The translations under genes and the position numbers were made by a program. From Sulfurimonadaceae bacterium (GTDB taxonomy: Bacteria; Campylobacterota; Campylobacteria; Campylobacterales; Sulfurimonadaceae), in contig JBNKLA010000057.1 of assembly GCA_050292115.1 (NCBI GenBank), forward strand, positions 239 to 64,238: a stretch of DNA of 64,000 bases, in the 5' to 3' direction. Under the pieces are notes generated by a model. That model searched no databases, was not told where the DNA came from, and saw only the letters and a program-made list of their open reading frames with translations. Of the stretch, positions 584 through 63,886 are shown piece after piece. How positions within the stretch are numbered: position 1 is the stretch's first letter; each line of letters opens with the position of its first letter.

Positions 584-916
584 ATGCGCATCCATATCGA
601 TGATCTTACCTTCGATGCGATCATCGGTATTTTAGAATCTGAGCGCCATACGCCTCAACGCGTTAGGGTTACATGTAAGATTGATTATGCCTACACAGCG
701 GATACTTTTATTGACTACGCCGTCGTTGCCCAAACAATACAATCTACTATTATTGAAACGGAGTTTGAACTGCTTGAAAGTGCCATCGAGACATTAGGCA
801 CCGTTTTAAAAACACGTTTTCCATTGATTCAGAGTCTCTATCTTAAAATTGAAAAACCCGACATTCTGCCCCAAGCCACGGTAGGAATCAGCCATACTTT
901 CACTTTTAATTCTTAA
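584..916 (+). CDS. folB: Dihydroneopterin aldolase (FolB family)
   Basis: 110 aa. The N-terminus MRIHIDDLTFDAIIGILESERHTPQRVRV resembles the FolB GIxxxER..Q signature. The start codon directly abuts the plsY stop. Confidence 0.7.
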   Translation: MRIHIDDLTFDAIIGILESERHTPQRVRVTCKIDYAYTADTFIDYAVVAQTIQSTIIETEFELLESAIETLGTVLKTRFPLIQSLYLKIEKPDILPQATVGISHTFTFNS

Positions 917-984
917 AGAAAATTGAAACTTTTTTTAAAGAAAGTTGAAAAACAAATTAAATTAACCTAAAACTATGCTATAAT
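913..984 (+). promoter_or_regulatory. Candidate promoter of the response-regulator gene, with two 16-bp direct repeats at a 22-bp period
   Basis: TTAAAGAAAATTGAAA (913-928) and TTAAAGAAAGTTGAAA (935-950) differ at one base. They are followed by an extended -10, TGCTATAAT (976-984), 36 nt before the ATG at 1020. Confidence 0.35.
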
Positions 985-1019
985 CCCGAATCTAAAATAA
1001 TCCATTATGAGGACACTAA

Positions 1020-1691
1020 ATGCGCATTCTCATCATCGAAGATGAAGTCACATTAAATAAGACTTTGGCCGAAGGCCTCAAAGAGTTCGGCTATCAAAGT
1101 GATGTCGTCGAAACCCTCAAAGATGGCGAATATTATCTTGATATCCGCAATTACGACTTGGTTTTGACCGACTGGATGCTTCCTGACGGTAACGCCGTAG
1201 ATATTATTCCTGATGTTAAAGCCAATACGCCTAAAACCGTAATCGTTGTACTCTCTGCACGAGACGACAACGATAGTGAGATCGAAGCACTACGTGCGGG
1301 AGCAGACGATTATATCCGTAAACCGTTTGATTTCGACGTTTTAGTAGCGCGTCTTGAGGCACGTTTACGCTTTGGCGGCAGTAATATTATTGAAATCGAA
1401 GATCTGATTATTAATCCCGAAGAAGAGAAGATCATCTACCGTGACAAAGAGATCGAACTCAAGGGCAAACCGTTTGAAGTACTCACGCATCTGGCACGCC
1501 ATCGTGATCAAATTGTAAGCAAAGAGCAGTTGCTTGATGCCATCTGGGAAGAGCCGGAACTGGTCACGCCAAACGTAATTGAGGTGGCTATCAACCAAAT
1601 TCGTCAAAAAATGGACAAGCCGCTGGGCATTACTACCATCGAAACGGTACGCCGCCGCGGGTACCGCTTTTGCTTTCCTAAAGAGGTCTGA
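1020..1691 (+). CDS. OmpR/PhoB-family two-component response regulator
   Basis: Receiver domain (MRILIIEDE...DLVLTDWMLPD...K) plus a winged-helix C-terminus (TVRRRGYRF). Confidence 0.9.
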   Translation: MRILIIEDEVTLNKTLAEGLKEFGYQSDVVETLKDGEYYLDIRNYDLVLTDWMLPDGNAVDIIPDVKANTPKTVIVVLSARDDNDSEIEALRAGADDYIRKPFDFDVLVARLEARLRFGGSNIIEIEDLIINPEEEKIIYRDKEIELKGKPFEVLTHLARHRDQIVSKEQLLDAIWEEPELVTPNVIEVAINQIRQKMDKPLGITTIETVRRRGYRFCFPKEV

Positions 1692-1707
1692 TTTCAGACC
1701 TCTTTTT
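1681..1707 (+). terminator. Rho-independent terminator overlapping the response-regulator stop codon
   Basis: AAGAGGTCTGA (1681-1691) pairs perfectly with TCAGACCTCTT (1694-1704) and is followed by a T-run to 1707. Confidence 0.65.
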
Positions 1708-1773
1708 CAACATTTAACCCCTTTTTACAACTCTTTTTGATATCATAAATTATCTCGTTGCAAGGCTCTTTTT

Positions 1774-3402: not shown

Positions 3403-3412
3403 GCAATAATAC

Positions 3413-5342: not shown

Positions 5343-5389
5343 TCTTAGCGATTCCGCTATAATGGCATCATTACTTCGCCGGAGTCTTG

Positions 5390-7603
5390 ATGCGCATCCG
5401 CTTTTTTGCAGTCAATCGTACACAACAACGCTATTTTTTGCAACTTAAGGAGCACCTTACATGTAGCTCTGATGTGCGTTTATGCAAGCAGTTACTACGT
5501 CCTCGTCTCGCACTATTTCAAATCGACTCACACACACTAATTGAGCATAAAATCAAAGAGCTACGCAATAGCGGAAGTTTTTGGGGTTATGGTATTGGCC
5601 ACTATCTGATGTGCGCAATCTTACATGTTGAGATCACGCTCATGGTGCTACGCTACGCTCACTATGTCGATGACCCGCGCTACGACACCATTGCACTGTG
5701 GAACGGAAAGCATCTGCGCCAAGCGCTTCTGGCACAACTTGCAAGCCATTTTGGCAAGCAAACGCTCTTTTTTGAAAACGGAATGCTGCCCGACACCACC
5801 GTATGCGATATCAAAGGCGTGAATGCCGACAACAGCGTCCCGCGTGAGCGTGCATTTTTTGAAACCTTTACATGTAACGTGAAACGTCCGCTTCCCGAAG
5901 CGCTTAGCGTGCGGCACTCCAAATCGGGTCGGAGCCAGTCTGATAACGGTGCGTGGTTACCCGAAAATTTTATGTTTATCCCGTTTCAGGTCAATCACGA
6001 TACCCAGATTACCCACCATTCGCCTTGGATTGAGGATATGTTTGCGTTTTTTGAACTTTGCAAAGCGATGGCCAAAGCACTCCCTCGCCAAAATTTCATA
6101 TTAAAAATCCACCCCTCCGACCCCGCGGATTACACCTCACTGCTTACGCGCGCCGATAATCTGCCCAACCTCACGTTTGCCAATGCCGTGCCGACGCAAG
6201 AGCTGATTGAGCGCTGTGAGGGTGTGGCCACGATAAACTCCAGTGTCGGTATCGAAGCGATGCTCTATCACAAGCCGGTGATCGTACTGGGCGAAGCGTT
6301 TTATGCCATCGAAGGCATTACGCAAACGATACGCTCTAAAGCAGAGCTTCTTGCACTGCTTGAGCGCAGTATCGACACACCCAATGCTACGCTTCGCCAA
6401 AACTTTTTGGATTATCTCAATAGCGAATACCTCATTCCCGCACACTGGAAAAATCCCACCAAAGCGCACTATGACGCTCTCAATCAAAGGCTTACATGTA
6501 AAGCTTCTCGCAAAGAGTGCGTTCTCTTTATGGTCTCGACCACACTGCATCTTTACAACGCCATCGTTGCGGCAATGATGCACGACGAGTGGGAGTCGCA
6601 CCTCGTGTATATCGATCAGGCTCCACAAGAGCATCACCTCTATTTTGAGGCGCTTCAAGCGTGGGAAACCTCGCCGTTTCAGAGCCTTTCGCTCTATCCG
6701 ACTCGCGTTAAAGGCGCACTCAACAAATGGCGTGTGCGCCGCAACGCGTTTAAACGATTACGCCGCGACGTCGGCGCCATTGCCCCGCAGCGCATCTATG
6801 TCGGAAACGACCGCCGCATCGAATTTGCATACGCCCTACATGTAGCCAAGCAGATTCAACCCGATGTGATCGGCGGCTATATCGACGATGGGGCGTATTC
6901 GTATATTGTGCAAAAGAGCAAGTGGTATCAAGATACGTTTATCGATATCACCTTTAAAAAGCTTATTTACGGTTTTTGGTATTTCCGCCCTAGCATCATT
7001 GCCGCAAGCGACGCGGTACAAGAGGCCTTTGTTGCCTTGCCCGAATTTGTGCACGAAAAGCTCAAAACCAAAACACTGCACCGCCTTGAGACCGACCGAC
7101 TACTCGATACGCGCCTCAAGCCGTTTACCGACTACATTGTGTCACCCTATCATCTTGATACCAAAGCCATCAAAGCGCTTGATCTGCTCTTTATTCTTCC
7201 GCACGAATCGCTCATACGAAGCGCACCCGATTTTATGAACAGCGTATTGCAAAGCATAAAGCAAAGCGTGGCACAAGGCTACAGTGTGGGCATCAAATAC
7301 CACCCGAGGCAATCGGAACGCGATCCCTTGGGGCTATTAGAGTATAAAGGCGTAAGTCTGCTTCCCAACACTCTTGCCTTTGAAGCGTTGCTACCGCTTT
7401 TAGGATCACCCATAATTGTGGGCGACGTCTCTTCGGCACTGCTGATGGCGCGCTGGCTACGTAGCGATCTCAAGGTGCTCTCGCTACGCAAACCCAACGA
7501 TGCTAGACAAAAAGAGATGCGCGCCATTTTTGAGTATGTCGGCATAACCATCGTCGAACCGTCACACTTTCAAACTACTCTTGCCAAGGAGCTTGCGCGA
7601 TGA
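5390..7603 (+). CDS. Two-domain capsule/surface polysaccharide biosynthesis protein (KpsS/KpsC-like N-terminal half)
   Basis: The FIPFQVNHDTQI motif and the surrounding region resemble the Capsule_synth family. The C-terminal ~370 aa form a second, unassigned domain. The ATG at 5390 is preferred over the tracked TTG at 5387. Confidence 0.55.
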   Translation: MRIRFFAVNRTQQRYFLQLKEHLTCSSDVRLCKQLLRPRLALFQIDSHTLIEHKIKELRNSGSFWGYGIGHYLMCAILHVEITLMVLRYAHYVDDPRYDTIALWNGKHLRQALLAQLASHFGKQTLFFENGMLPDTTVCDIKGVNADNSVPRERAFFETFTCNVKRPLPEALSVRHSKSGRSQSDNGAWLPENFMFIPFQVNHDTQITHHSPWIEDMFAFFELCKAMAKALPRQNFILKIHPSDPADYTSLLTRADNLPNLTFANAVPTQELIERCEGVATINSSVGIEAMLYHKPVIVLGEAFYAIEGITQTIRSKAELLALLERSIDTPNATLRQNFLDYLNSEYLIPAHWKNPTKAHYDALNQRLTCKASRKECVLFMVSTTLHLYNAIVAAMMHDEWESHLVYIDQAPQEHHLYFEALQAWETSPFQSLSLYPTRVKGALNKWRVRRNAFKRLRRDVGAIAPQRIYVGNDRRIEFAYALHVAKQIQPDVIGGYIDDGAYSYIVQKSKWYQDTFIDITFKKLIYGFWYFRPSIIAASDAVQEAFVALPEFVHEKLKTKTLHRLETDRLLDTRLKPFTDYIVSPYHLDTKAIKALDLLFILPHESLIRSAPDFMNSVLQSIKQSVAQGYSVGIKYHPRQSERDPLGLLEYKGVSLLPNTLAFEALLPLLGSPIIVGDVSSALLMARWLRSDLKVLSLRKPNDARQKEMRAIFEYVGITIVEPSHFQTTLAKELAR

Positions 7604-8541
7604 TTTTTAAACCGCTACTACAGTATCTTACTCACCGTTTCGATCCCAATAACTACCGCCTTGTTATGACGATTCTGTGCAAAGACGAAGCCGATATTAT
7701 CGAAGCCAATATTCGCGTCCACGCCGCTTTGGGTGTGGACGCTTTTGTGGTGATGGACAACGGTTCACGCGACGGTACCCGCGAAACACTCACTGCACTT
7801 CAAGAGGAGTTTGAGTTACATGTAATCGATCGTGAAGGGGTGTATGATCAGAGCGCATGGATGACGGAACTGGCACATTACGCCCGCGATGAAATGGGTG
7901 CGGATTGGGTGATAAGCAACGATGCCGATGAGTTCTGGCTACCCCAAAGCGAACGTTCGCTCAAAGAGATTTTGGCACGTAGCGGCAGTGTGCTGACCTG
8001 CCACCGCTACAATATGCTGATGGATGCGCAGGCCTTACATGACGATTATAAATTTTACGACTGCGGATTGCGCGTAGAAAACCCTATTTTCTACCATAAC
8101 GAACAGCTCTCTAAAGAAAACGTCTCGATTGTGCTTTCCAAAATTGGCCCCAAAGTGATTGTCAATCCCCACGGCCTCATTAAAGTGAAAGGCGGCAACC
8201 ACCGTGCCAAGCATGTGGCGTTTAAGAGCATTGTCGATTACATGAAGCCTTACGACAAGCTCAAAAAAGTTGATGAGATCAAAGTGTATCACTTCTCCAT
8301 GCGCGGTTGGAAACATTTTGAGGGCAATATTTTAAACCGCAAACACCTGCTTGAAGAGCATGAGAATGTGCGCATGGGTAACCACTACCGCCGCTGGGTC
8401 AAACTTTATAACGAAGGTACACTAAAAAATGAGTTTGAGAACTTTATTTTCAAACCGGATGATATTGCAGTGTTAGAAAAGTACGGTGTCGTGCTTTATG
8501 ATGAATATCCCATTAAGAAGATCAAAAGTCTCCTCTTATGA
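7600..8541 (+). CDS. Family-2-like glycosyltransferase
   Basis: ATGA overlap with the upstream gene. The segment ILCKDEADIIEANIRVHAALGVDAFVVMDNGSRDGT...DADEF is typical of GT2-type (Glyco_tranf_2_4-like) proteins. Confidence 0.7.
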   Translation: MIFKPLLQYLTHRFDPNNYRLVMTILCKDEADIIEANIRVHAALGVDAFVVMDNGSRDGTRETLTALQEEFELHVIDREGVYDQSAWMTELAHYARDEMGADWVISNDADEFWLPQSERSLKEILARSGSVLTCHRYNMLMDAQALHDDYKFYDCGLRVENPIFYHNEQLSKENVSIVLSKIGPKVIVNPHGLIKVKGGNHRAKHVAFKSIVDYMKPYDKLKKVDEIKVYHFSMRGWKHFEGNILNRKHLLEEHENVRMGNHYRRWVKLYNEGTLKNEFENFIFKPDDIAVLEKYGVVLYDEYPIKKIKSLLL

Positions 8542-9732: not shown

Positions 9733-9755
9733 TTGGCTATTCTACCCACCGTTTA

Positions 9756-10805
9756 TTAACCGTAAAACGTTTTATACCACGCCACAAAATGCTTAATCCC
9801 CTCACGTAGATCCGTATCGGGTTTATACTCAAAATCTTCTACCAGCGCATCTACATCGGCATAGGTCGAAACTACATCGCCGTCTTGCATGGGTAGCATC
9901 TCTTTTTGCGCCTCTTGTCCCAATTCTGCTTCAAGTGTTTTAATGAAGTCCATAAGTGCCACGGGTTTATTATTGCCGATATTATAAATTCGGTACGGTG
10001 CCGAGGAGCTGTCGATCTCAGGATCATCCGAGTTCCACGAAGTATTGCGTTGTGCCGGTTTGTCAATCACATTTACTACCCCACTCACGATATCATTGAT
10101 ATAGGTGAAGTCACGGCTCATCTGCCCGTTGTTAAAGACTTTGATGGGACGGTTGTTTAAAATGGCATCGCTAAAGAGCATGGGTGCCATGTCGGGTCGT
10201 CCCCACGGCCCATACACGGTAAAAAAGCGCAGTCCCGTCGTCTGAATCCCAAAAAGATGACTATACACATGCGCCATCATCTCATTAGATTTTTTCGTTG
10301 CGGCGTACATGCTTACCGGATGTTCCGTTTTGTCCGACGTTTTAAAGGGTTGCGAGGTATTTAGACCATACACCGACGAACTCGAAGCGTAGGTGAGATG
10401 CTTTATCTCAAAACGGCGACACGCCTCTAAAATATTTAAAAAGCCGCTCACATTGCTATCGACATACGCCTGAGGATTTTCAAGCGAATAGCGCACCCCT
10501 GCTTGCGCCGCAAGGTGACACACCGCATCAAAACGCTCGGTTTCAAAGATTTGAAACAGTGCTTGCTGATCGGAGAGATCGGTTTTATAAAAACGGTGCT
10601 GCTCGTATGTTTGCGATGCTACGGCACTATTATCACTTATAGCATCACGCGCTATTCCCAGTACATGTAAGCGTCCGTATTTGAGATTAACATCATAATA
10701 ATCATTGATATTATCAACCCCAATCACCTCATCGCCACGCTCAAGTAGACGCCGTGCAAGGTGAAAGCCGATAAATCCGGCGCTTCCCGTTACTAAAATT
10801 TTCAT
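9756..10805 (-). CDS. NAD-dependent nucleotide-sugar epimerase (UDP-glucuronate 4-epimerase-like)
   Basis: MKILVTGSAGFIGFHL Rossmann start and a YAATK catalytic motif. The internal ATG at 10805 is preferred to the tracked start at 10865. Confidence 0.85.
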   Translation of the reverse strand: MKILVTGSAGFIGFHLARRLLERGDEVIGVDNINDYYDVNLKYGRLHVLGIARDAISDNSAVASQTYEQHRFYKTDLSDQQALFQIFETERFDAVCHLAAQAGVRYSLENPQAYVDSNVSGFLNILEACRRFEIKHLTYASSSSVYGLNTSQPFKTSDKTEHPVSMYAATKKSNEMMAHVYSHLFGIQTTGLRFFTVYGPWGRPDMAPMLFSDAILNNRPIKVFNNGQMSRDFTYINDIVSGVVNVIDKPAQRNTSWNSDDPEIDSSSAPYRIYNIGNNKPVALMDFIKTLEAELGQEAQKEMLPMQDGDVVSTYADVDALVEDFEYKPDTDLREGIKHFVAWYKTFYG

Positions 10806-14488: not shown

Positions 14489-14498
14489 TTACATGTAA
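14489..14498. repeat. TTACATGTAA palindrome filling the gap between convergent stop codons
   Basis: The 12-nt gap 14487-14498 reads CGTTACATGTAA; GTTACATGTAAC is a 12-bp palindrome. Confidence 0.95.
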
Positions 14499-19186: not shown

Positions 19187-19222
19187 CTTTACATGTAAGT
19201 CAGGCTTACATGTAAAGCTTTT
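19187..19222 (+). terminator. Inverted pair of TTACATGTAA motifs forming a terminator-like hairpin
   Basis: CTTTACATGTAAG (19187-19199) and CTTACATGTAAAG (19205-19217) are perfect complements with a 5-nt loop. CTTTT follows. Confidence 0.55.
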
Positions 19223-19257: not shown

Positions 19258-20664
19258 ATGGCTTTTATCGCATCAAAATCTTTTCACACCTTTTTAATGG
19301 TATCTATCATTGCTCTAGGCTGGTTTATACCTACCCCCGAAGGTTTAACACCTGAGGCGTGGCATCTATTTATTATCTTCTTGGCAACAATTCTAGCCAT
19401 TATTATAGGGCTACTTCCTATTTTTACCGCTTCCATTATTGCCGTCTCTTTTGCCATTCTTAGCGGCACTATGGATGCCAAAGCGGCCTATAGCGGCTTT
19501 GACGAGAGCTTTATTTTGCTCATCGTAGCGGCTTTTTTGGTAGCGCGCGGTGTAGTCAAATCGGGACTTGGCAAACGTATCGCCTTGCTTATTATTCGCA
19601 AATTCGGCCACTCCACGCTAGGGCTTGGCTACTCCATGGTGGCCACCGATATGTTGATCGCTCCGGCCTTCCCTTCCAACACGGCGCGCTCGGGCGTGCT
19701 CTTTCCTATTGTGCACTCTTTGGCGCATGACAGTGGCTCCAAAGTGGCTGACGGCACGGCCAAAAAAGTCGGTGCATACCTTATGATGAACTCCATGGCG
19801 GGCATCGCCATCAGCTCAAGTCTGTGGCTTACCGCAATGGCTTCTAACCCCGTGGGCGCGGCGATTGCCAAAGATATGGGGATTCACATCACCTTTGGCT
19901 CATGGCTTGCCAGTGCTCTGCCTCCGGCACTTGGCGCTTTTATAGCCATACCGTGGCTGTTGTATAAGATATTTCCGCCCGAACTCAAAGCCACACCCGA
20001 GGCACCGCAAACGGCGCAACAAGAGCTTAAAAAGATGGGTGCAATCAGCCGCAATGAGTGGATTACGGGACTTACCTTTGTCAGCATGGTAACGCTCTGG
20101 GCGCTTTCAGGCGTACTGGGTATCGATAAAACGGCCATCGCGTTTGCGGGGCTTGGCATCATGATGATTAGCAAAATTTTTACGATAGAGGATATGCACA
20201 ATCAGGGCGAAGCGCTCTCGACCTTGATCTGGTTTGCGATTCTTTATGCCATGAGTTCAGAGCTTAACCGTCTGGGCTTTATGAGCTATGTCGGCGAAGG
20301 TATTGCAGGACAACTTGGGCATATGGAGTGGTTTGGCACTTATGTGATGCTCATTGTCATTTATGTGTTAATTCACTACCTCTTTGTATCGCAAACGGCG
20401 CATATGCTCGCACTCTTTGGCGTATTCTTACATGTAGGAGTCGATGCCGGTGTACCGGGGGAGCTTTTGGCGCTCATGTTGCTCTTTGCCACCAATTTTA
20501 ATTCGGTTATTACGCCGCAAGGCTCCAGTGCCAATGTACTTTTTGCCGGATCGGGCTATCTAAGCGCCGCCGATATCTACAAAAACGGCGGTATCGTTAC
20601 CGCTACGAACACTGCCATCTTTTTGCTTGTCGGCACGCCATGGATTTTATTTCTTACGACATAG
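19258..20664 (+). CDS. DASS/SLC13-type anion (di/tricarboxylate or sulfur oxyanion) transporter
   Basis: About 12 hydrophobic segments and an SNTARSG-type hairpin motif (FPSNTARSGVLFP). The ATG at 19258 is preferred over the tracked TTG at 19246. Confidence 0.8.
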   Translation: MAFIASKSFHTFLMVSIIALGWFIPTPEGLTPEAWHLFIIFLATILAIIIGLLPIFTASIIAVSFAILSGTMDAKAAYSGFDESFILLIVAAFLVARGVVKSGLGKRIALLIIRKFGHSTLGLGYSMVATDMLIAPAFPSNTARSGVLFPIVHSLAHDSGSKVADGTAKKVGAYLMMNSMAGIAISSSLWLTAMASNPVGAAIAKDMGIHITFGSWLASALPPALGAFIAIPWLLYKIFPPELKATPEAPQTAQQELKKMGAISRNEWITGLTFVSMVTLWALSGVLGIDKTAIAFAGLGIMMISKIFTIEDMHNQGEALSTLIWFAILYAMSSELNRLGFMSYVGEGIAGQLGHMEWFGTYVMLIVIYVLIHYLFVSQTAHMLALFGVFLHVGVDAGVPGELLALMLLFATNFNSVITPQGSSANVLFAGSGYLSAADIYKNGGIVTATNTAIFLLVGTPWILFLTT

Positions 20665-25222: not shown

Positions 25223-25232
25223 TTACATGTAA
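25223..25232. repeat. TTACATGTAA palindrome in an intergenic gap
   Basis: Exact copy. The following AAGGA could serve as the RBS for the ATG at 25247. Confidence 0.95.
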
Positions 25233-27680: not shown

Positions 27681-27717
27681 TCTATTTCCTCACAATTACG
27701 CCACCAAAAAGAGACTT

Positions 27718-29939: not shown

Positions 29940-30004
29940 CTGCGTTCTCTATTTTATATTGCTTCAAGTATACTTACTCTGTACTAAAAAATGGTTAAAA
30001 ATGG

Positions 30005-34291: not shown

Positions 34292-34382
34292 TAGATATCT
34301 TTACATGTAGGATATATTTATTTGGCGATTATACCGTGAGACGTTGAAGAAGGGCTTACATAATTTGTGCTAAAATAGGTAA

Positions 34383-35263: not shown

Positions 35264-35273
35264 TTACATGTAA
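35264..35273. repeat. TTACATGTAA palindrome immediately after the ppk2 stop
   Basis: Exact copy 6 nt after the stop codon. Confidence 0.95.
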
Positions 35274-36168: not shown

Positions 36169-36178
36169 TTACATGTAA
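36169..36178. repeat. TTACATGTAA palindrome between convergent genes
   Basis: Exact copy in the 120-bp gap between the response regulator and M14 peptidase 3' ends. Confidence 0.95.
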
Positions 36179-38849: not shown

Positions 38850-38859
38850 TTACATGTAA
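38850..38859. repeat. TTACATGTAA palindrome in a 22-nt intercistronic gap
   Basis: Minus-strand reading: TAA gcg TTACATGTAA GGGAGcggc GTG. The motif abuts the RBS of the M14 gene. Confidence 0.95.
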
Positions 38860-41090: not shown

Positions 41091-42189
41091 CAAAACTCCC
41101 CTTTTTAATAAAGTGCTCAAACAGCTTTACACTTAAATCGATACGTGATGCAAAACTCGCCTTGCTGGCGCGCTCATGCACCGTATGATCGCCATCGCCA
41201 AACGGCCCCAAACCGTCAAGCGTTACCACGCCTTGCGAACTCACAATATTCGCATCGCTCACGCCGCCACGCTCTTCGTAAAGTAAACGCTCGCCCGTAA
41301 TGCGTTCAATCGCATCAATCCACGCCATCGAGGCTTTGGAAGGCTGCATCACATCGCGCTGGATACCGCCACTAAGTTGAGATGTGCTCCCCTCAACATA
41401 CGATGTACTCACTATCGTATCAATCGCGTGAAGCAGACGCTCACGTTCATCGGCACTTTTGTAGCGTATTTCAAAGAGCAGATGGGCGCGTGGCGAAATC
41501 GTATTGGCTCCAATACCGCCTTCGATTTTGCCGACATTTACGGTGGTGCCTTTATCTAAATTGGTAAGGGCTACAAGTTTTTGGATTTTATAACTTGCCT
41601 CAAGATTGGCATCGATCCCTTCGGCATAGTGATTGCCCGCATGTTTGGCCAGCCCCGTAATCGTAATCGTAAAAGTTCCGACCCCTTTACGCGCTGTGAC
41701 CACTTCGCCCTTAGCACCCGCCGCTTCATATACCAAAGCGTAATCATACTCTTGTGCCAGCTTCGCGCTCAGCAATTTAGAGTCATCACTACCCGTCTCT
41801 TCGTCACTCACCAACAGCATGTCGATATTGTGAATCTCCATACCCTTTACATGTAAGGCTCTAAGGGCTTCAAGCGCTACGATATTACCGCCTTTCATAT
41901 CGCATACACCAGGGCCATATATCCACTGATCATCTTCGCTATAGGTCTCAAAAGTATCGGGAGGAAAAACGGTATCAAGGTGGCCTAATAAAAGCAGTTT
42001 CTTACCCTCAGCGCTTTTTGAGCGGTAATGACGGTGCCCGCCAATCAGTTCACGCTGATGATGCTCTACATGAAAACCAAGCGGTTCAAGCCATGCATCA
42101 AACTGCTCGCCGACTGCATCGACACCTGCCTTGTTTTTGGTGTACGAGTTGATACAAACAATCGTTTTCAGATCGTCAAGATAGTGCAT
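41083..42189 (-). CDS. M20-family metallopeptidase (glutamate carboxypeptidase/CPG2-like)
   Basis: LLLGHLDTVFP, CDMKGG and SDEETGS metal-binding and catalytic motifs. No signal peptide. Confidence 0.85.
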   Translation of the reverse strand: MHYLDDLKTIVCINSYTKNKAGVDAVGEQFDAWLEPLGFHVEHHQRELIGGHRHYRSKSAEGKKLLLLGHLDTVFPPDTFETYSEDDQWIYGPGVCDMKGGNIVALEALRALHVKGMEIHNIDMLLVSDEETGSDDSKLLSAKLAQEYDYALVYEAAGAKGEVVTARKGVGTFTITITGLAKHAGNHYAEGIDANLEASYKIQKLVALTNLDKGTTVNVGKIEGGIGANTISPRAHLLFEIRYKSADERERLLHAIDTIVSTSYVEGSTSQLSGGIQRDVMQPSKASMAWIDAIERITGERLLYEERGGVSDANIVSSQGVVTLDGLGPFGDGDHTVHERASKASFASRIDLSVKLFEHFIKKGSFDA

Positions 42190-42300
42190 TCAACACCTCT
42201 ACATGTAAGAGTGGAAATATAAAATGCGATTATACAGCGAAATAATTGAAATTGGTTAAAAAGTTGCGGAAGTTTTAAACAGAAGCGGGGAGTCCGAAAA

Positions 42301-44387: not shown

Positions 44388-44397
44388 TTACATGTAA
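44388..44397. repeat. TTACATGTAA palindrome upstream of rpsP
   Basis: GCTTACATGTAAGC is a 14-bp perfect palindrome, 60 nt upstream of the rpsP ATG. Confidence 0.95.
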
Positions 44398-48621: not shown

Positions 48622-49805
48622 GGTAATACTGCTTTCATATCGTTTATTATCTCGCTTAGATCGATCTTCTCATCAATCATCGAAGGCGGAAGCTCATGCG
48701 TTTTTCGTAAAGCCGCGCCAATGGCATCGCGCTCAACAAACTGAACGTGATGTACATATTTAAAAAGCTCTTTTTGGTTAAAAAAGTGCACTCCGCTAAT
48801 AATCTTACATCCAAAATGCGCCGGTTCCAGTGGATTGTGCCCGCCGACATTTTCATTAAACGCACCACCTAAAATTACGACATCGCTTATGGCGTAGATA
48901 TTGTTGAGTTCACCCAAAGTATCGAGTAGCACAATATCCGCATCAAAGCCCTCTTTGTCGCTCCAGCGTTTACAGGCACCCTGAAAGAAGTGCCCTTGGG
49001 GTGTAAAAGTGTTACATGTAAGGCTATCCCATACTGCGCTGAAACGTTCAGGATGGCGCGGTGCGATGATAAGCATACTCTCACTATGCGTCTGACGATA
49101 CACCATAAACGCTTCAACAATCGCCTGCTCTTCACCTTCATGTGTGCTGGCCGCCGTAATGACTTCGCGCTTTGGTTTCTCATAGCTACGGCTCAGCTCA
49201 ATCTTTTGCGCCAGTTTGATATTACCCAATACCTTTACATGTAAGGCTTCCAGTGCCACGAAACGGTTTTTATCTGCCTCAGACTGCACATAGATAGCGT
49301 CACAATACTCAAGTAATTTACGATAAAACCACCCAAAACGCAGATATTTGGCAAAACTGCGCTCTGAGATGCGGGCGTTAAGCAATACCACCTTTGCGCC
49401 ACGCGCTTTGGCAATATGAAAGAGCAGATACCAAAACTCCGCCTCTAACACCACCACCATTTTAGGCCGTTTAATCCAAAAAGGCAAGAACATTTCAAAC
49501 GGAAGGTAGCGCACTTCACAACCGTACTTTTGCGCCTCGGCATACCCCGTATGCGTGATCGTCGAAATCATAACGTTTTCACTTCCAATCGCTTCAATGA
49601 GCGGTGCAAGTGAACGCACCTCGCCTAAAGAGCAGGCATGAAACCAGATGCCCTTACATGTAAAGCGCGGATTGCGCCATAAAAAGAAACGTGCGGGAAT
49701 CGAACGGCGGTATTTGGATTTAAAACTTAAAACAAGCAGTAGCGGTAGCGCCAGTGCATAAAGCGCCAACGCAAGCGTGAAATAAAAGAGCGTAAAGAGC
49801 TTCAC
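48618..49805 (-). CDS. waaA: 3-deoxy-D-manno-octulosonic acid (Kdo) transferase
   Basis: N-terminal anchor, then WFHACSLGEV and GGHNPLEPA motifs typical of WaaA/KdtA. Confidence 0.85.
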   Translation of the reverse strand: MKLFTLFYFTLALALYALALPLLLVLSFKSKYRRSIPARFFLWRNPRFTCKGIWFHACSLGEVRSLAPLIEAIGSENVMISTITHTGYAEAQKYGCEVRYLPFEMFLPFWIKRPKMVVVLEAEFWYLLFHIAKARGAKVVLLNARISERSFAKYLRFGWFYRKLLEYCDAIYVQSEADKNRFVALEALHVKVLGNIKLAQKIELSRSYEKPKREVITAASTHEGEEQAIVEAFMVYRQTHSESMLIIAPRHPERFSAVWDSLTCNTFTPQGHFFQGACKRWSDKEGFDADIVLLDTLGELNNIYAISDVVILGGAFNENVGGHNPLEPAHFGCKIISGVHFFNQKELFKYVHHVQFVERDAIGAALRKTHELPPSMIDEKIDLSEIINDMKAVLP

Positions 49806-51312: not shown

Positions 51313-51884
51313 TTAAGTTTCTCCAATTCAAACTTGGCCTGTGTAAAGTCAGGATCAATTTCAATGGCGCTCACATAGCGTTGACGGGCTTCCTCTTTAC
51401 GCTCCATATCCAGCAGTAAATTGGCATAATTGAAATGGGTTATCGCATAGTCATCATCAATCTCAAGTGCACGCCTATAATGCTCCTCGGCCTTCTCATA
51501 CGCTTTTTGACTTCGTAGCACCGAAGCAACGGCGTTATGGACTATATCGTCATGTTCATTGAGCGCCAGTGATGCTTCATACGCTTCAAGCGCTTCGTCA
51601 TATCGCCCCTCTTTGGCTAAAACAAAACCGAGTTTATTGAGGACTTCCGTGCTTTTGAGATCAATGTTATGGGCATTTTGCAGTAGGGTGAGCGCTTGAT
51701 AATACTCGCCTTGTTCATATGCACGATCGGCATCTTCAATCATCGATTCAACGCTCTGCGTCTCATACGGTATCGTCTCCTCTTCAGCAACGCTATCTCT
51801 ATCTTCAAGCGTCTTTACATGTAAGTAAATCTGATACGCAAAAAAGAGTGCCGCAGCAAGCAATATAACCGAAAAAAAGCTCAT
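51309..51884 (-). CDS. Membrane-anchored TPR-repeat protein
   Basis: The ATG at 51884 has an AAGGAG RBS. One TM segment is followed by several TPR units (YYQALTLLQNA..., YDEALEAYEASL...). Confidence 0.7.
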   Translation of the reverse strand: MSFFSVILLAAALFFAYQIYLHVKTLEDRDSVAEEETIPYETQSVESMIEDADRAYEQGEYYQALTLLQNAHNIDLKSTEVLNKLGFVLAKEGRYDEALEAYEASLALNEHDDIVHNAVASVLRSQKAYEKAEEHYRRALEIDDDYAITHFNYANLLLDMERKEEARQRYVSAIEIDPDFTQAKFELEKLK

Positions 51885-56438: not shown

Positions 56439-56448
56439 TTACATGTAA
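56439..56448. repeat. TTACATGTAA palindrome in a 22-nt intercistronic gap
   Basis: Minus-strand reading: TGA tgtg TTACATGTAA GGTGAtag ATG. The motif abuts the RBS of the LOG-family gene. Confidence 0.95.
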
Positions 56449-56452
56449 CACA

Positions 56453-59454: not shown

Positions 59455-60327
59455 TTAAAAATGTTCCATCAAACGCTTAAATAGCCCGCTAAGACCACTG
59501 TCTGAGGGTGTAGAAAGCACATTGTGTTCCAATTTTTTGGCGAGATTGCCTACAATCTTTTCAATATCGCGTGTCGCCTGTATACTTGGCATCTCTTTGG
59601 CAAAAAGTGTGCGCTTTTTAATGCAGAGCGCCACTTTGGCATCGTAGTTGATTTTACCCAGATAATTCAGCATAAGCTGATCTCCAATATTGAGCCGCGC
59701 CACTTTTTTAATCTTTTCAAAAACGGCAATTGCCTCTTTATCGCCGTGAACCTGATTCATTACCACATCAATCTGCGTGCGAATACGCGAGGTTACTTTA
59801 ATGGTCGCATAGGCATCGGTAATTGCCGCAGGGTCAGGCACCGTCACCACCACCACGTCATCTGCCGCTTTTAAAAAGAGCTGGGTGTGTTCGCCGATTC
59901 CCGCGCCCGTGTCGATAATCATCACATCAATGTCATCAAGCGCATGGGCATTTTGCATAAAACGCTCAAACATCGTTGAAGAGGCGTATTTTAAAATCTC
60001 TTCACCGCTCTCACCCGGAATCAAAATCAGATTGGGTGCAATCGGAATCAAAATATCCGAAACTTCGGCTTCACCTTTGAGTACATGTAAGATGGTCTTT
60101 TTGATCTTAACGTTAAACATCACATCCAGATTGGCCAGCCCGATATCGGCATCAAATATGGCCACTTTCAGACCGCTTTGCGCCAAAAGATACGCTATAT
60201 TAGCGCTAATAGTACTTTTGCCCACTCCGCCTTTACCACTCGTTACGGCTATAAATCGCGTCTTTTTGGAACTGCTACTATGACGCTCTTTCACCAGCGC
60301 TTCGAGTTTTGCCGCCTGATGTTTCAT
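59455..60327 (-). CDS. flhG: MinD/ParA-type flagellar number regulator FlhG
   Basis: TSGKGGVGKST deviant Walker A; immediately downstream of flhF. Confidence 0.9.
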   Translation of the reverse strand: MKHQAAKLEALVKERHSSSSKKTRFIAVTSGKGGVGKSTISANIAYLLAQSGLKVAIFDADIGLANLDVMFNVKIKKTILHVLKGEAEVSDILIPIAPNLILIPGESGEEILKYASSTMFERFMQNAHALDDIDVMIIDTGAGIGEHTQLFLKAADDVVVVTVPDPAAITDAYATIKVTSRIRTQIDVVMNQVHGDKEAIAVFEKIKKVARLNIGDQLMLNYLGKINYDAKVALCIKKRTLFAKEMPSIQATRDIEKIVGNLAKKLEHNVLSTPSDSGLSGLFKRLMEHF

Positions 60328-61571: not shown

Positions 61572-61580
61572 GCTAAACCT

Positions 61581-62069
61581 TTACATGTAGAGCATACTAA
61601 GCGGTATGACCACGCTTGCACGCTCTGCCCAATGGGGATGCGGTATCCGTAAACGCGGCGTATCTACCACCCTGCCGTCAAAAAAAAGAATATCCAAATC
61701 GAGTGTTCTCGGCGCATTCGCAAAACTGCGTTTACGCCCAAAACGCTTCTCGGTATGCAATAAAAAATCCAAAAAACGTTGTGGAGTAAGTGACGTTTTG
61801 AGCGCCAATACCGCGTTGTAAAAATCCGCTTGATCACTAAAACCAAAAGGCGGATTCTTCAGAATCGGACTACTGCTACACAGCGTCACGACACGCTGGC
61901 GGCGCAACCATGCAATCAGATGATAAAAGCGGCGGCGCACATCGCCGACATTGCCGCCAATCCCGATCACAGCCGTATGGCGTAACGCGGAATCGCATCG
62001 ATAACGGGCAGGAAAACGGCGGTCTTTATAGAGTGTCAGAGTATCATTAAACCGTTGCGCCACTGCCAC
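61581..62069 (-). CDS. folK: HPPK (2-amino-4-hydroxy-6-hydroxymethyldihydropteridine pyrophosphokinase)
   Basis: RTLDLDILFF and IPHPHWAERASV motifs. The stop codon lies inside a TTACATGTAG motif variant. Confidence 0.85.
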   Translation of the reverse strand: MAVAQRFNDTLTLYKDRRFPARYRCDSALRHTAVIGIGGNVGDVRRRFYHLIAWLRRQRVVTLCSSSPILKNPPFGFSDQADFYNAVLALKTSLTPQRFLDFLLHTEKRFGRKRSFANAPRTLDLDILFFDGRVVDTPRLRIPHPHWAERASVVIPLSMLYM

Positions 62070-62080
62070 ATTACGCCTTT

Positions 62081-62563
62081 TTATTGCTGTGCTTGCTGTT
62101 GTGCGGCTTGCTGCTGTTTGAGTGCGTTGATTTCGTTGAGCACCTGTGCCATGCCGATCATCGCCAAATGGTAACTAAACGGCCCAAAACCGATGATTGA
62201 AGAAGCACATACCGGAGCGATCATGCTCTTTTGACGGAACTCTTCGCGGCGGTTGATGTTGCTAATATGCACTTCGATCGTCGGTAAACCTACCGCTGAG
62301 ATGGCATCGCGAATCGCAATTGAGGTGTGCGTATAGGCGGCGGGGTTGATGATAATGCCGTCGGCATCGCCATAACACTCTTGAATTTTATCGACAATTT
62401 CACCCTCTAAATTGCTTTGAAAAAACTCGACCTCAAGGTTATTGTCATCGGCGAACGATTTCATCTGTGCGTGAATCTGCTCCAGTTTCATCGGTCCGTA
62501 AATATTTTGCTCACGTACGCCGAGCATATTGAGATTGGGGCCTTGTATTACGACTACTTTCAT
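62081..62563 (-). CDS. aroQ: Type II 3-dehydroquinate dehydratase
   Basis: [29 protein letters not shown] and EVHISN motifs. Confidence 0.93.
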
Positions 62564-62665
62564 TATTTTCCTTATGCTTAATTGTTGCGGTATATTATAG
62601 ATAAAATCGCATTGTAAAGTGCTTATGGGTAAGATTAGATTTCATTTCGCTTACAAGGCCATAGA

Positions 62666-63886
62666 GTGACTATTATCCAGCCCGATTATATTTTAACACC
62701 GCATACCCTGCTTGAAAAACAGGCCGTGGCATTTGAAAAAACGATTGTTGCCATTGGTCCGATAGACGATCTCAAAAGTGCGTATCCCGATGCCAAGATC
62801 GTTACATGTAAGCCCAATTCGCTCTTGATGCCGGGACTGATTAACGCACATGTGCATCTTGAATTTAGCGCCAATAAAACCACACTGGAGTATGGAAACT
62901 TTTTACCGTGGCTCTATTCGGTGATCAAAAATCGTGATGATCTTATTACTACATGTAACACCGAATGTATGCAAAAAGCGGTTGCGATGATGTTGCACTC
63001 GGGCATTACCACTTTTGGAGCTATCAGTTCGCACGGATATGATCTCGAAGCCGCCGAAGTCGCGCCGCAAAACGTGCTGTTTTTCAATGAGCTTATCGGT
63101 TCGCAAGCCGCCATGGCCGATGCACTGTATACCGACTTTTTAGAGCGGCTTGACAACTCCAAAAAAATCACGCGCGAAGGCTTTATGCCCGCCATTGCCA
63201 TCCACTCGCCCTATTCGGTGCATCCGATTTTGATTAAACGTGCGCTTGAGATGGCCACAAACGAAAACCTGCCGTTAAGTGCGCACTATATGGAGTCGCC
63301 CGCCGAGCGCGAATGGCTAGATGAAAACCGTGGCGATTTTGCGCCCTTTTTCAAAGATTTTCTCAACATGGAGTACGCCGTTAACCGCTCTGAGGAGTTT
63401 TTAGAGCTTTTTGACGATACCCCAACGCTCATGACCCATGTGGTGCACGCCTCAAAACCAGAGCTTGAGATGCTAAAAAACGGCGATCATACCGTGGTGC
63501 ACTGCCCTATTTCAAACCGTCTACTCGGAAACGGTGCCATCGATTTGGATGCGCTTGAAAACGAAGGTATTTCATGGCTACTAGCCACAGACGGGCTAAG
63601 CTCAAACTACACACTCGATCTTTTTGAAGAGATGAAAATCGCACTCTTTATGCACCACGGGTCAGATCTGATACCGCTGGCACAAAAGCTTATTGAGAGT
63701 GTTACATGTAACGCCGCCAAAGCGCTCAATCTCAACACTGGAAGTATCGAAATCGGTAAACAGGCCGATATGCTTCTGTTTAATCTTGATGAAGCTCCAA
63801 ACGAGCAACTTACCCTGCATCTGCTACTGCACCGCTACCCGATTAGCGACATTTTTATTCGCGGTAAACGTTATGAAGGATTTTGA
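62666..63886 (+). CDS. Amidohydrolase-superfamily deaminase/chlorohydrolase (possibly aminofutalosine deaminase-like)
   Basis: GTG start. Metal-binding GLINAHVHLEFS and the later HxxH / D motifs of the amidohydrolase fold. Confidence 0.75.
   Translation: MTIIQPDYILTPHTLLEKQAVAFEKTIVAIGPIDDLKSAYPDAKIVTCKPNSLLMPGLINAHVHLEFSANKTTLEYGNFLPWLYSVIKNRDDLITTCNTECMQKAVAMMLHSGITTFGAISSHGYDLEAAEVAPQNVLFFNELIGSQAAMADALYTDFLERLDNSKKITREGFMPAIAIHSPYSVHPILIKRALEMATNENLPLSAHYMESPAEREWLDENRGDFAPFFKDFLNMEYAVNRSEEFLELFDDTPTLMTHVVHASKPELEMLKNGDHTVVHCPISNRLLGNGAIDLDALENEGISWLLATDGLSSNYTLDLFEEMKIALFMHHGSDLIPLAQKLIESVTCNAAKALNLNTGSIEIGKQADMLLFNLDEAPNEQLTLHLLLHRYPISDIFIRGKRYEGF

Follow-up and report, generated by a model that had tools for sequence, protein, structure and literature searches.

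The 10-base palindrome TTACATGTAA was found in 28 exact copies in the window (the whole 64-kb stretch of DNA analysed, 46.2% GC), against about 0.05 expected. The strict constrained unit is its 8-mer core TACATGTA, of which the window holds 45 copies. On sequence grounds we tentatively read this core, usually extended to TTACATGTAA, as a 'self' word of the HIP1, USS and DUS kind, spread through the whole genome in certain lineages; the function inferred for it most probably involves natural transformation, and methylation of the CATG core may also play a part. The word is apparently undescribed. An earlier, sequence-only reading of this DNA knew of no such element for Campylobacterota, and our literature searches likewise found no description of one.

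A sharp 8-bp core in large excess

A recount returned all 28 exact copies at the positions that the sequence-only reading had listed; its rough expectation had been about 0.1 copies. In 100 dinucleotide-preserving shuffles of the window TTACATGTAA occurred 0.05 times on average (maximum 1), and an order-3 Markov model gave 0.08 copies per strand, or 0.03 with the word masked from the background; by these measures the enrichment is roughly 350- to 900-fold. A maximal-order Markov model 'predicted' the count (56 vs 56.01), but this test is uninformative because the motif itself supplies nearly all of the 8- and 9-mer sub-words. The 10-mer had been taken as the unit, with at least 16 further copies carrying one mismatch. 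The word is real and we counted 16 such versions, 15 of them altered at the outer base only, with the listed examples correct apart from 30234, which should read 30224; the unit itself, however, is the 8-mer. The sole inner-mismatch 10-mer of the window lies at 8690 (TTACATGCAA). ACATGT belongs to a copy of TACATGTA at 45 of its 49 sites and is not enriched outside it. In pooled counts we observed 341 exact copies, 55 outer variants and 25 inner one-off variants, the last against 19 expected. The core is crisp, and an inner one-mismatch halo is essentially absent.

The density is about 1 copy per 1.4-2.3 kb, and copies are placed along the window no more regularly than at random (CV 0.92). The palindrome widens to 14-18 bp with A/T-rich shoulders. 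As had been claimed, A almost never precedes the motif (0 of the 28 exact copies), and two of the 28 are followed by T. Flank preferences, described earlier for the window, vary between lineages. Beyond about 4 bp the flanks of different copies are unrelated, so TACATGTA is not a mobile repeat, and the possibility of one longer mobile repeat with conserved flanks, raised beforehand, falls away. An identical 19-mer does occur twice as reported, although it starts at 6488 and 19202 (6488-6506 and 19202-19220) and not at 6489 and 19203.

Copies of the word in the window. All sites have strand '.' (palindrome); amino acids are those of the frame reading through the word.
Position	Sequence	Context	Amino acids
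669..678	exact TTACATGTAA	folB-like gene	V-T-C-K
5457..5466	TTACATGTAG	KpsS-like gene (5387-7603)	L-T-C-S
5868..5877	exact TTACATGTAA	KpsS-like gene	F-T-C-N
6492..6501	exact TTACATGTAA	KpsS-like gene; centre of 19-mer	L-T-C-K
6836..6845	CTACATGTAG	KpsS-like gene	L-H-V
7816..7825	exact TTACATGTAA	ORF 7600-8541	L-H-V
10661..10670	GTACATGTAA	epimerase/dehydratase gene, minus strand	L-H-V
14489..14498	exact TTACATGTAA	fills 12-nt gap between two convergent stop codons	
15095..15122	exact pair (15095, 15113)	19-37 nt past dnaK stop; 13-bp hairpin, -14.4 kcal/mol, z -6.1	
19189..19215	exact pair (19189, 19206)	12 nt past rhodanese-like gene stop; 14-bp hairpin, -16.5 kcal/mol, z -4.5; then AGCUUUUG	
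20428..20437	TTACATGTAG	DASS transporter gene	L-H-V
23066..23075	ATACATGTAA	hybrid sensor kinase gene	D-T-C-K
23572..23581	exact TTACATGTAA	hybrid sensor kinase gene	L-H-V
24952..24961	TTACATGTAG	response-regulator/GGDEF gene	I-T-C-S
25223..25232	exact TTACATGTAA	intergenic; 3' end merges into AAGGA ribosome-binding site of gene 25247-27250	
25421..25430	TTACATGTAG	gene of 667-aa protein of unknown function	L-H-V
25772..25781	CTACATGTAA	667-aa protein gene	L-H-V
26640..26649	exact TTACATGTAA	667-aa protein gene	L-T-C-N
30224..30233	GTACATGTAA	lgt, third frame; outer mismatch avoids stop codon	Y-M-Y
30858..30867	exact TTACATGTAA	ORF 30838-31641, 21 nt before stop	L-H-V
31963..31972	exact TTACATGTAA	Fe-S oxidoreductase gene	L-H-V
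32130..32139	CTACATGTAG	Fe-S oxidoreductase gene	A-T-C-S
33021..33030	exact TTACATGTAA	hemN	I-T-C-K
34301..34310	TTACATGTAG	intergenic, divergent hemN/ppk2 starts	
35264..35273	exact TTACATGTAA	7 nt past ppk2 stop	
36169..36178	exact TTACATGTAA	convergent intergenic region	
38594..38603	TTACATGTAG	M14-peptidase-domain gene	L-H-V
38850..38859	exact TTACATGTAA	22-nt operon junction, stop codon to ribosome-binding site	
40860..40869	GTACATGTAA	RimK-like gene, third frame	Y-M-Y
41847..41856	exact TTACATGTAA	M20 peptidase gene; L-K-K-x in orthologues	L-H-V
42199..42208	CTACATGTAA	intergenic, 11 nt upstream of M20 peptidase start	
44388..44397	exact TTACATGTAA	most likely just upstream of true rpsP start	
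49012..49021	exact TTACATGTAA	waaA; orthologous copy in 4/4 nearest relatives	L-T-C-N
49235..49244	exact TTACATGTAA	waaA; orthologous in L258, L259, L263	A-L-H-V-K
49654..49663	exact TTACATGTAA	waaA; specific to this genome	F-T-C-K
51815..51824	exact TTACATGTAA	TPR gene; core copy at same offset (~61 nt) from called start in L258, L259, L261, L263	
54744..54753	exact TTACATGTAA	mnmA	V-T-C-K
56439..56448	exact TTACATGTAA	22-nt operon junction; own TAA + GGTGA = ribosome-binding site	
60081..60090	GTACATGTAA	flhG/MinD-like ATPase gene	L-H-V
61581..61590	TTACATGTAG	last codons and stop of folK	L-Y-M-stop
62802..62811	exact TTACATGTAA	amidohydrolase gene	V-T-C-K
62949..62958	CTACATGTAA	amidohydrolase gene	T-T-C-N
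63702..63711	exact TTACATGTAA	amidohydrolase gene	V-T-C-N

Placement in genes and at gene ends

About two thirds of the copies are intragenic, at arbitrary positions and in two frames, at a cost to protein sequence. Within ORFs the core is read as L-H-V 15 times, as x-T-C-K/N 15 times and as Y-M three times, which agrees with the two-frame use noted before; the third frame had been thought to occur only as a gene end, and this holds for the copy forming the folK stop, but the two others read TAC-ATG-TAC. L-H-V tripeptides number 18 in the window against 3.4 expected, and 12 of the 18 are encoded TTA-CAT-GTA, where the expected fraction is 0.013 (1.3%). T-C dipeptides number 25 against 10.1 expected, 15 of them within the word, and 8% of all cysteine codons fall within it. 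Orthologous positions in motif-free relatives encode different residues; at a waaA position, for example, the motif-bearing clade has A-L-H-V and motif-free relatives have A-K-N-I/V. All three copies previously placed near waaA lie inside the gene itself. The word thus rewrites protein sequence, overriding both codon usage and the ancestral protein sequence at the DNA level, and these codon and tripeptide statistics, together with the orthologous positions, strongly support the proposal of selection on the DNA word and not on a peptide.

Eleven of the exact copies are noncoding, as stated before, provided that the copy at 44388 is taken to precede the true rpsP start. Gene 3' ends and the gaps between convergent genes are strongly enriched in the word, and among the intergenic classes divergent promoter regions rank lowest. 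Close pairs fold as hairpins of 13-16 bp (-14 to -22 kcal/mol) lying 2-31 nt past stop codons (median about 10 nt); 30 are flanked by convergent genes and 4 by divergent ones. Their spacers are self-complementary, with sequence and length varying between pairs, and most hairpins have no U-run after them. Pairs account for 4 of the 45 core copies in the window, and a single copy with its flanks gave a folding z of +0.55. Overall, the word gathers where it is tolerated, namely at variable protein positions, in short post-stop gaps and in gene-end hairpin stems.

Distribution and conservation among Campylobacterota

The enrichment is not confined to the window. In the four nearest relative genomes (L258, L259, L261/L262 and L263), which were fetched by protein homology alone and so sampled without bias, the word occurs at 0.3-0.6 copies/kb despite a GC content of 30-51%. 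It exceeds the chance level by a factor of hundreds in this genome and in several Sulfurimonas- and Sulfurospirillum-like lineages, and is carried by many Sulfurospirillaceae, cultured strains included (S. arcachonense DSM 9755, strain SCADC and strain 1307); in many of these it is extended to CTTTACATGTAAAG. In contrast, it was absent from 805 kb sampled of other relatives (typical Sulfurimonas), from named Sulfurimonas and from Sulfurospirillum sp. 1612, and no substitute word was found in close relatives lacking it. Its occurrence is patchy by phylogeny and not phylum-wide: it is present or absent by lineage.

Among the nearest relatives, 54 of 93 sites (58%) were at orthologous positions, compared with 9.9% of background 8-mers, and the outcome was bimodal, a site being either perfectly kept or unrelated. 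The 15.8 kb of non-syntenic inserted blocks contained 2 sites, and the 68.2 kb of DNA shared between genomes contained 36 (P ~0.01). Individual copies persist for long, and lineage-specific insertions are poor in the word.

Known systems and possible explanations

The suggested resemblance to HIP1 and DUS held for every sequence-level feature that could be tested. Like HIP1 of cyanobacteria (GCGATCGC, with its 'alternate HIPs'), the word is perfectly palindromic, has a strict unit of 8 bp and is over-represented tens- to hundreds-fold inside and between genes, with one-off variants mainly at the first and last positions and an inner 6-mer (CGATCG for HIP1, ACATGT here) not enriched outside the full word; in both, sites are kept between genomes well above background and some lineages lack the word. 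Unlike HIP1, it is AT-rich with a CATG core, belongs to another phylum, is usually extended to 10-14 bp with lineage-specific flanks, is strongly enriched past stop codons and occurs as hairpin pairs. The DUS of Neisseriaceae is GCCGTCTGAA and the USS of Pasteurellaceae AAGTGCGGT; their properties as given here are established knowledge. Such classical uptake sequences are asymmetric and have a sizeable halo of one-mismatch copies. Similarities are the size of about 10 bp, the density, coding copies in preferred frames at variable protein positions, closely spaced complementary copies forming hairpins just downstream of genes, lineage 'dialects', conservation among related species and scarcity in lineage-specific insertions. 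The word differs in its perfect palindromy, in being almost without an inner halo and in its patchiness within families, and its uptake role is putative.

Under the self-tag reading, which we favour tentatively, a sequence-specific protein would read the 8-bp core with enzyme-like, all-or-none precision. Word-bearing DNA would be favoured in natural transformation, at uptake and/or recombination, and word-bearing alleles would therefore keep replacing those that had lost the word, with molecular drive and purifying selection acting together. Methylation inside the CATG/ACATGT core is probably needed for recognition, on the model of methylated RAATTY in Campylobacter jejuni, where only RAATTY-methylated DNA is taken up, and of methylated HIP1, which boosts transformation in cyanobacteria. 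HIP1 abundance also correlates phylogenetically with Type IV secretion system proteins, which the authors of that work link to DNA uptake. RAATTY comes from the same phylum, is palindromic and discriminates self from foreign DNA in natural transformation, much as proposed for the present word; it differs in being a degenerate 6-mer, frequent by chance and needing no enrichment, whereas the word here is a rare 8- to 10-mer enriched several hundred-fold. Hairpin pairs may be terminator-like stems into which the word was taken up; once one arm holds the palindrome, the other must hold it too. Genus-level patchiness and an identical core in two families are easier to reconcile with an enzyme that can be transferred than with an uptake receptor passed on vertically. 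Neither a methyltransferase nor a competence gene was seen in the window, a crude motif screen covering ~600 kb of loci that bear the word gave no methyltransferase-like ORF, and literature searches yielded nothing on natural transformation in these genera. These points, together with the nearly absent inner halo, the palindromic form and a spacing no more regular than chance, were counted against the self-tag reading.

A doubtful but serious alternative is that the word is the by-product of an 8-bp- or ACATGT/CATG-specific methyltransferase with biased repair or nicking, following Elhai's ratchet model for HIP sequences; it would be an epiphenomenon, or a strand or self mark for repair, with no role in DNA uptake. 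Perfect palindromy, restriction-enzyme-like sharpness with deviations almost only at the outermost bases (as reported for HIP1), unenriched ACATGT outside the word, and the patchy presence of one core in two families, which suits a horizontally moving enzyme gene, all agree with this. On the other hand, conversion of near-cognate sites should deplete inner one-off variants, which it has not (25 vs 19), and the screened loci showed no methyltransferase. Pathogenic Campylobacterota such as H. pylori and C. jejuni are not known to carry MutS1/MutL, which we also counted against the ratchet. Moreover, conservation of 58% versus 10% indicates that individual sites are retained and not only replenished, an argument that Xu et al. 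used for HIP1.

We regard it as unlikely that the word is the site of an abundant dimeric DNA-binding protein acting in place at ~1000 sites per genome, with possible roles in nucleoid organisation, supercoiling relief or transcription termination at gene ends. The widened palindrome with its A/T-rich shoulders is typical of a helix-turn-helix dimer site, sites are individually conserved, and the enrichment at 3' ends and between convergent genes would suit such roles. In unrelated bacteria and phages the same 10-mer acts as an operator-like repeat and is thus readily recognised by proteins. Palindromic operator- or centromere-like sites (phage and gammaproteobacterial TTACATGTAA repeats; Noc, SlmA and parS-type sites) share this 10-mer or similar 14-16 bp palindromes, are read by dimeric proteins and have copies about two helical turns apart; however, they are few and local, lie in regulatory DNA and have flanks of their own, whereas the present word recurs genome-wide about once per 1.5-2 kb and is mostly intragenic, in two frames and costly to protein. 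Against a binding protein also stand the poverty of divergent promoter regions, the close relatives that live with neither the word nor a substitute, and the word-poor inserted genes, which would be surprising were a site required at each gene end or in each domain.

It is very improbable that the word acts primarily in RNA, as a terminator or mRNA-stabilising hairpin block with incidental intragenic copies: the pairs are very stable, sit just past stop codons and have self-complementary spacers, but few window copies are paired, a lone palindrome cannot form a stable hairpin, most copies are coding, most hairpins lack a U-run, and terminators need no fixed stem sequence genome-wide. We give practically no credence to remnants of a mobile repeat (MITE, REP or REPIN) or to a compositional or peptide artefact: the repeated 19-mer and the superficially REPIN-like doublets are outweighed by unrelated flanks, differing spacers and in-frame copies at orthologous positions of housekeeping genes in genomes whose GC content is 30-51%. 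Flanks and orthology already refute the repeat, fewer than 0.1 copies are expected from shuffles and Markov models, and codon choice rules out peptide-level selection.

Abundance and unit of the word

The sequence-only reading had counted 28 exact copies of the 10-base palindrome TTACATGTAA (the word) by eye, and an exact search of the 64-kb window recovered all 28. Against its estimate of about 0.1 copies expected by chance, dinucleotide-preserving shuffles of the window (46.2% G+C) gave a mean of 0.05 copies and a maximum of 1, an order-3 Markov model gave about 0.08 copies per strand, and with the word masked from the background the expectation was 0.03. These models were used in place of a maximal-order Markov model, which is unusable as a test of excess and gives back the observed count trivially, because the 8- and 9-mer sub-words derive almost entirely from the motif. 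Two details needed correction. There are 16 one-mismatch 10-mers, 15 of which deviate at the first or last base only, but the copy placed at 30234 is really at 30224; and an identical 19-mer does occur twice, starting at 6488 and 19202 instead of 6489 and 19203. The single inner mismatch, TTACATGCAA, lies at 8690.

The top over-represented 8-mer of the window was the inner core TACATGTA, present in 45 copies. These contained 45 of the 49 ACATGT sites, and the inner hexamer was not enriched elsewhere. Their outer base pairs were T..A in 28 copies, T..G or C..A in 10, G..A in 4, C..G in 2 and A..A in 1. We then combined 583 kb of sequence from further Campylobacterota that bear the motif; it contained 341 exact copies. 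Outer-base variants were common in this set (C 34, G 14 and A 7, with fewer than one expected for each), whereas all 24 inner one-off variants summed to 25, against 19 expected by chance. This difference suggests all-or-none reading of the inner eight bases, as at a restriction/modification site, the outermost base being a mere preference.

The flanks add a weak symmetric extension to the core. In the window's genome, A-S-S-B stands to its left and V-S-S-T to its right; most Sulfurospirillum-like genomes have C-T-T and A-A-G instead, giving CTTTACATGTAAAG plus A-rich and T-rich shoulders; and Sulfurospirillum sp. 1307 mainly had TTACATGTAG or CTACATGTAG. These variants amount to dialects of particular lineages, the core itself being unchanged. 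Flank alignment and repeat search found the copies to be surrounded by unrelated sequence from about 4 bp outward on each side. The possibility, raised beforehand, that the copies are parts of one longer mobile repeat was thus not borne out, and a REP, REPIN or MITE reading was rejected on the same ground, most copies moreover being intragenic and in frame. Regular spacing was rejected as well, as copy-to-copy distances in the 64-kb window were indistinguishable from random (CV 0.92).

Placement, history and distribution of the sites

Annotation with Pfam and NCBIfam showed the window to be ordinary housekeeping chromosome (plsY, folB, ppx, perR, msbA, dnaK-grpE, hemN, lgt, ppk2, rplS-trmD-rimM-rpsP, ffh, waaA, ppk1, mnmA, fliM/N, fliA, flhF/G, folK and aroQ). 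ORFs hold 33 of the 45 core copies, and the two main reading frames described earlier account for 15 each, L-H-V and x-T-C-K/N/S. The other three are read as Y-M: one provides the folK stop codon, and two have a deviating outer base because they are read as TAC-ATG-TAC. L-H-V tripeptides numbered 18 in the window against 3.4 expected from composition, and TTA-CAT-GTA encoded 12 of the 18, where codon usage predicts 1.3%. T-C dipeptides numbered 25 against 10.1 expected, with 15 of them within the word. Judged by these codon and peptide counts, the excess acts on the DNA word and not on a peptide, as had been argued from the sequence alone. About 8% of the window's cysteine codons (15 of 191) are owed to the word, which clearly illustrates how a DNA word can reshape proteomes. 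Motif-free relatives have other residues at the orthologous positions, K-N-I-E or K-N-V-V for L-H-V-K and L-K-A-D or L-K-S-N for F-T-C-K, which makes the word the derived state. It occupies variable protein positions, where it overrides the protein sequence.

As claimed before, 11 of the 28 exact copies (about 39%) lie in noncoding DNA, which makes up a few percent of the window; this count includes copy 44388, because it stands upstream of the true rpsP start. Most intergenic copies in the window fell no more than 12 nt past a stop codon or within operon junctions of 22 nt, where the terminal TAA merges into the ribosome-binding site. Close copies formed pairs whose start-to-start spacing peaked at 20-22 nt and whose spacers are self-complementary (e.g. 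TTACATGTAAgggaaattcccTTACATGTAA). Such pairs fold as hairpins of 13-16 bp (-14 to -22 kcal/mol, z-scores -4.5 to -8.5) at a median of about 10 nt downstream of the stop codon. We found 30 between convergent genes, 29 in tandem and 4 in divergent arrangement.

Density of the word by gene context, and coordinates of features (intergenic per-kb densities are inflated because the loci were found through pairs)
Feature	Location	Observation
Convergent intergenic DNA	Motif-bearing loci	9.7 exact copies per kb
Tandem intergenic DNA	Motif-bearing loci	2.9 exact copies per kb
Divergent intergenic DNA	Motif-bearing loci	1.65 exact copies per kb; poorest intergenic class
Coding DNA	Motif-bearing loci	0.29 exact copies per kb
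Pair	Window, 15095/15113	After dnaK
Pair	Window, 19189/19206	After rhodanese-like gene
667-aa ORF	Window, 25247-27250	No Pfam/NCBIfam match; three word copies inside, one 16 nt upstream of start
Three minus-strand genes	Window, 27240-29939	ParA/RepA-like ATPase; AlbA_2 + HATPase_c_4 protein; 146-aa ORF without family match; inside the stretch 26640 to 30224, which is among the longest gaps free of the motif
Multihaem cytochrome gene	Window, 44543-46399	Minus strand; 618 aa; MtrC/MtrF-like
Acidic repeat	Window, 46137-46262	Four tandem copies, ~30-nt spacing
CCCTTAA array	L157 (motif-free relative), 9714-9798	~13 tandem heptamers
Palindrome ATCTTACATGTAAGAT(A)	L230, 7577-11553, and L245, 603-946 (IMG/VR phage)	16-18 bp
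Extended word (C)TTTACATGTAAAG	L215 (IMG/VR phage), 358-547	Five copies within 190 bp

The history of individual sites was followed pairwise in five syntenic genomes of 69-75% nucleotide identity; an earlier estimate from within Sulfurospirillum was dropped for locus ascertainment bias in favor of this unbiased set. Core sites were kept at the orthologous position in 54 of 93 cases, compared with 9.9% of background 8-mers. Their fate was bimodal: 58% were identical, 28% differed at three or more positions, and only 14% differed at one or two positions, compared with 55% in the background. In waaA, an A-L-H-V site is common to four genomes and has decayed to TTACATGTC in the fifth, and an x-T-C-K/N site is present in all five. 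Lineage-specific non-syntenic blocks carried 2 sites in 15.8 kb (0.13/kb), compared with 36 sites in 68.2 kb (0.53/kb) of the DNA common to the syntenic genomes (Poisson P ~0.01; the inserted blocks are a small sample). The block of three minus-strand genes at 27240 may be a small acquired island. No site was in common with the distant Sulfurospirillum-like UBA1877 (L003), which is syntenic over 43-51 kb, and the site sets of the two families therefore look independent or fully turned over. Taken together, these results show that a lineage-specific force acts on the DNA word, strong enough to alter proteins; that individual sites are long retained; and that the word accumulates in tolerated places, new insertions being poor in it.

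From its protein identities, the window's organism is a new Sulfurimonadaceae-like lineage: its WaaA is 65-70% identical to MAG proteins and 58-60% to named Sulfurimonas species, and for DnaK, Ffh and HemN no relative reaches 90% identity. Ffh and WaaA similarity to Sulfurimonas underlies the placement. The enrichment is not confined to the window. All four nearest relatives, fetched by protein homology alone (L258, L259, L261/L262 and L263; L259 and 'Sulfurimonadaceae bacterium H2.bin.31' are one assembly), have 0.3-0.6 copies of the word per kb at G+C of 30-51%; many Sulfurospirillaceae also carry it. A scan for paired copies no more than 30 nt apart, over 185,579 species genomes, gave at least 116 matches. 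Among those listed, Sulfurospirillum, Sulfurospirillaceae and Campylobacterales assemblies dominate, S. arcachonense DSM 9755 and Sulfurospirillum sp. SCADC included. The Sulfurospirillum-type loci had 3-9 exact copies per 8 kb, or 0.1-0.75 per kb once the two ascertained copies were subtracted; matches listed from other phyla mostly had only the two ascertained copies, operator-like in look, and a few (L004, L081) were local tandem arrays of 5-6 copies. The word is patchy overall. Only 5 exact copies turned up in 805 kb of metagenome sequence, from 80 loci surrounding ffh whose Ffh is 66-78% identical; S. paralvinellae, S. lithotrophica and Sulfurospirillum sp. 1612 had 0-1 core copies in 21 kb, and homology-sampled loci of Sulfurospirillum sp. 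1307 had 10. From homology-sampled presence and absence, the trait is clade-wide yet phylogenetically patchy, in at least two families.

No substitute hyper-abundant word was found in the motif-free relatives. One candidate, in L157, was rejected as a simple (CCCTTAA)n tandem array; it lies directly upstream of a TATAAT-like sequence and resembles a phase-variation repeat. L128, from a motif-poor clade, was excluded as a motif-bearing genome, as three of its four copies fall within 400 bp. The word is also present in the complete MAG CP093061.1, 'Arcobacter sp. MAG-3' (L024, L037, L085, L102); with its Ffh (P0165) 76% identical to UBA1877 Ffh and placed among Sulfurospirillaceae proteins, the Arcobacter label is probably wrong. 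CATG occurs at about 4 per kb in motif-bearing genomes and is strongly depleted in some motif-free relatives (L148, L137, L133, L162, L142; e.g. 1 in 3.4 kb, 8 in 11.5 kb), which suggests CATG-specific restriction systems in those lineages. TCTAGA, GTCGAC, GCATGC, GAATTC, CTGCAG and CCCGGG are absent from the window, and seven more palindromic hexamers occur once each; this looks like restriction-site avoidance. GCATGC has its CATG core in common with the word.

Known systems and candidate explanations

A likeness to the cyanobacterial highly iterated palindrome HIP1 and to DNA-uptake sequences had been proposed at the outset, and the palindromic octamer, outer deviations, conserved sites and gene-end hairpin pairs all bear it out. 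With the uptake sequences of Neisseriaceae and Pasteurellaceae (DUS and USS), the word shares an over-representation of at least 100-fold and dispersal through both coding and noncoding DNA at roughly one copy per kb, as well as a clade-wide presence with conservation at orthologous sites and scarcity in recent acquisitions, the last from a small sample. It also shares paired stem-loops immediately 3' of genes; hairpin pairs after stop codons are a feature of USS and DUS. Whereas DUS and USS are graded in specificity and have numerous copies mismatched at one base along the word, variation here is limited to the outer base. The closer parallel is HIP1, in that TACATGTA is a perfect, hyper-abundant palindromic octamer with a sharp 8-bp core, its deviations fall mostly at one of the two end positions, ACATGT is not enriched outside it, and its sites are conserved beyond neutral expectation. 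HIP1, however, is GCGATCGC and cyanobacterial, so that word and phylum both differ, and the relation is one of analogy, not membership. To our knowledge, only USS, DUS and HIP1 have been studied in depth as hyper-abundant genome-wide short words in bacteria. The word is a new instance of this class with a hybrid feature set: like HIP1 it is palindromic and enzyme-sharp, and like USS and DUS it forms hairpin pairs at gene ends. It would make a fourth, independent system, from a different phylum. The sequence-only reading knew of no such element described for Campylobacterota, and full-text literature searches likewise found no description of the 10-mer, or of the 8-mer with Sulfurospirillum or methyltransferase, and nothing relevant on uptake sequences in Sulfurospirillum/Epsilonproteobacteria, the Sulfurospirillum methylome or Sulfurimonas natural transformation.

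Thirty years on, the role of HIP1 is just beginning to be linked to methylation-dependent transformation. In its methylated form HIP1 now appears to boost natural transformation, and in the neighboring Campylobacter uptake depends on a methylated palindrome, C. jejuni importing only DNA methylated at RAATTY. Given this context and traits that are hallmarks of USS/DUS and HIP1, we tentatively favor a self-DNA tag: a predicted protein would read the word, and the putative tag would serve natural transformation, possibly via methylation. This is a plausible reading that we hold with less than even confidence. The hairpin pairs may be terminator-like stems that have absorbed the word. Pfam and NCBIfam found neither a methyltransferase gene nor a competence gene in the 64-kb window, and methyltransferase motifs were likewise missing from about 600 kb of motif-bearing loci under a regex screen, which is crude and hence a weak negative.

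The enzyme-like specificity and patchy distribution would also suit a word that arose as a by-product of methyltransferase-linked biased repair, a main rival that we regard as unlikely but worth keeping in view. Binding in place by an abundant dimeric protein, the other main rival, is doubtful: the 14-18 bp extended palindrome with its A/T shoulders fits a dimer and the same 10-mer is used as an operator elsewhere, but divergent promoter regions, where a set of regulatory or nucleoid-protein sites would be sought, are the poorest intergenic class. Quite improbable, in our judgment, is a horizontally transferable 'genome writer', a TACATGTA-specific system (e.g. methyltransferase/nuclease plus repair/recombination) that settled independently in Sulfurimonadaceae-like and Sulfurospirillaceae lineages. 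It would have driven about 1000 word copies into the chromosome, overwriting codons and amino acids, and its loss would let the word decay; such a drive on sequence, selfish or epigenetic, would differ from the receptor-based uptake bias of Neisseria and Haemophilus.

Close relatives with and without the word provide natural controls, among them two cultured Sulfurospirillum strains with complete genomes, 1307, which carries it, and 1612, which lacks it; cultured S. arcachonense and strain SCADC also bear it. A reader or writer gene is therefore open to phyletic profiling, and function is directly testable. For these MAGs the word serves as a strong signature in taxonomy and binning, and efficient genetic manipulation of Sulfurospirillum and related bacteria likely requires it.

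Similar words elsewhere and other repeats

Viral contigs gave 59 pair matches. In the roughly 10 loci with extra copies that we examined, the copies cluster locally in the manner of operators or iterons, with flanks peculiar to them, and nowhere are they dispersed as in the hosts; this bears on no model either way. In two IMG/VR phages, the palindrome ATCTTACATGTAAGAT(A) stands in most intergenic gaps of a 4-kb small-gene block that contains the small terminase gene, and is missing from the adjoining portal/large-terminase block; it looks like a phage regulatory site. Another phage contig (29% GC), which encodes a phage sigma factor and DNA-metabolism genes, has the Sulfurospirillum-type extended word interleaved with TTGACA and TTTACAC repeats, resembling an iteron or operator array. 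MAGs of Cellvibrio, Oleiphilaceae, Pseudomonadales and Agarilytica (L068, L098, L067, L051, L047) carry two or three TTACATGTAAT repeats, 21-25 nt apart, in an orthologous promoter-like region beside a divergent start codon. This arrangement is kept across these gammaproteobacteria and looks like the operator of a putative regulator. Within the window, the tandem repeat encoding an acidic sequence lies near the 5' end of the multihaem cytochrome gene.
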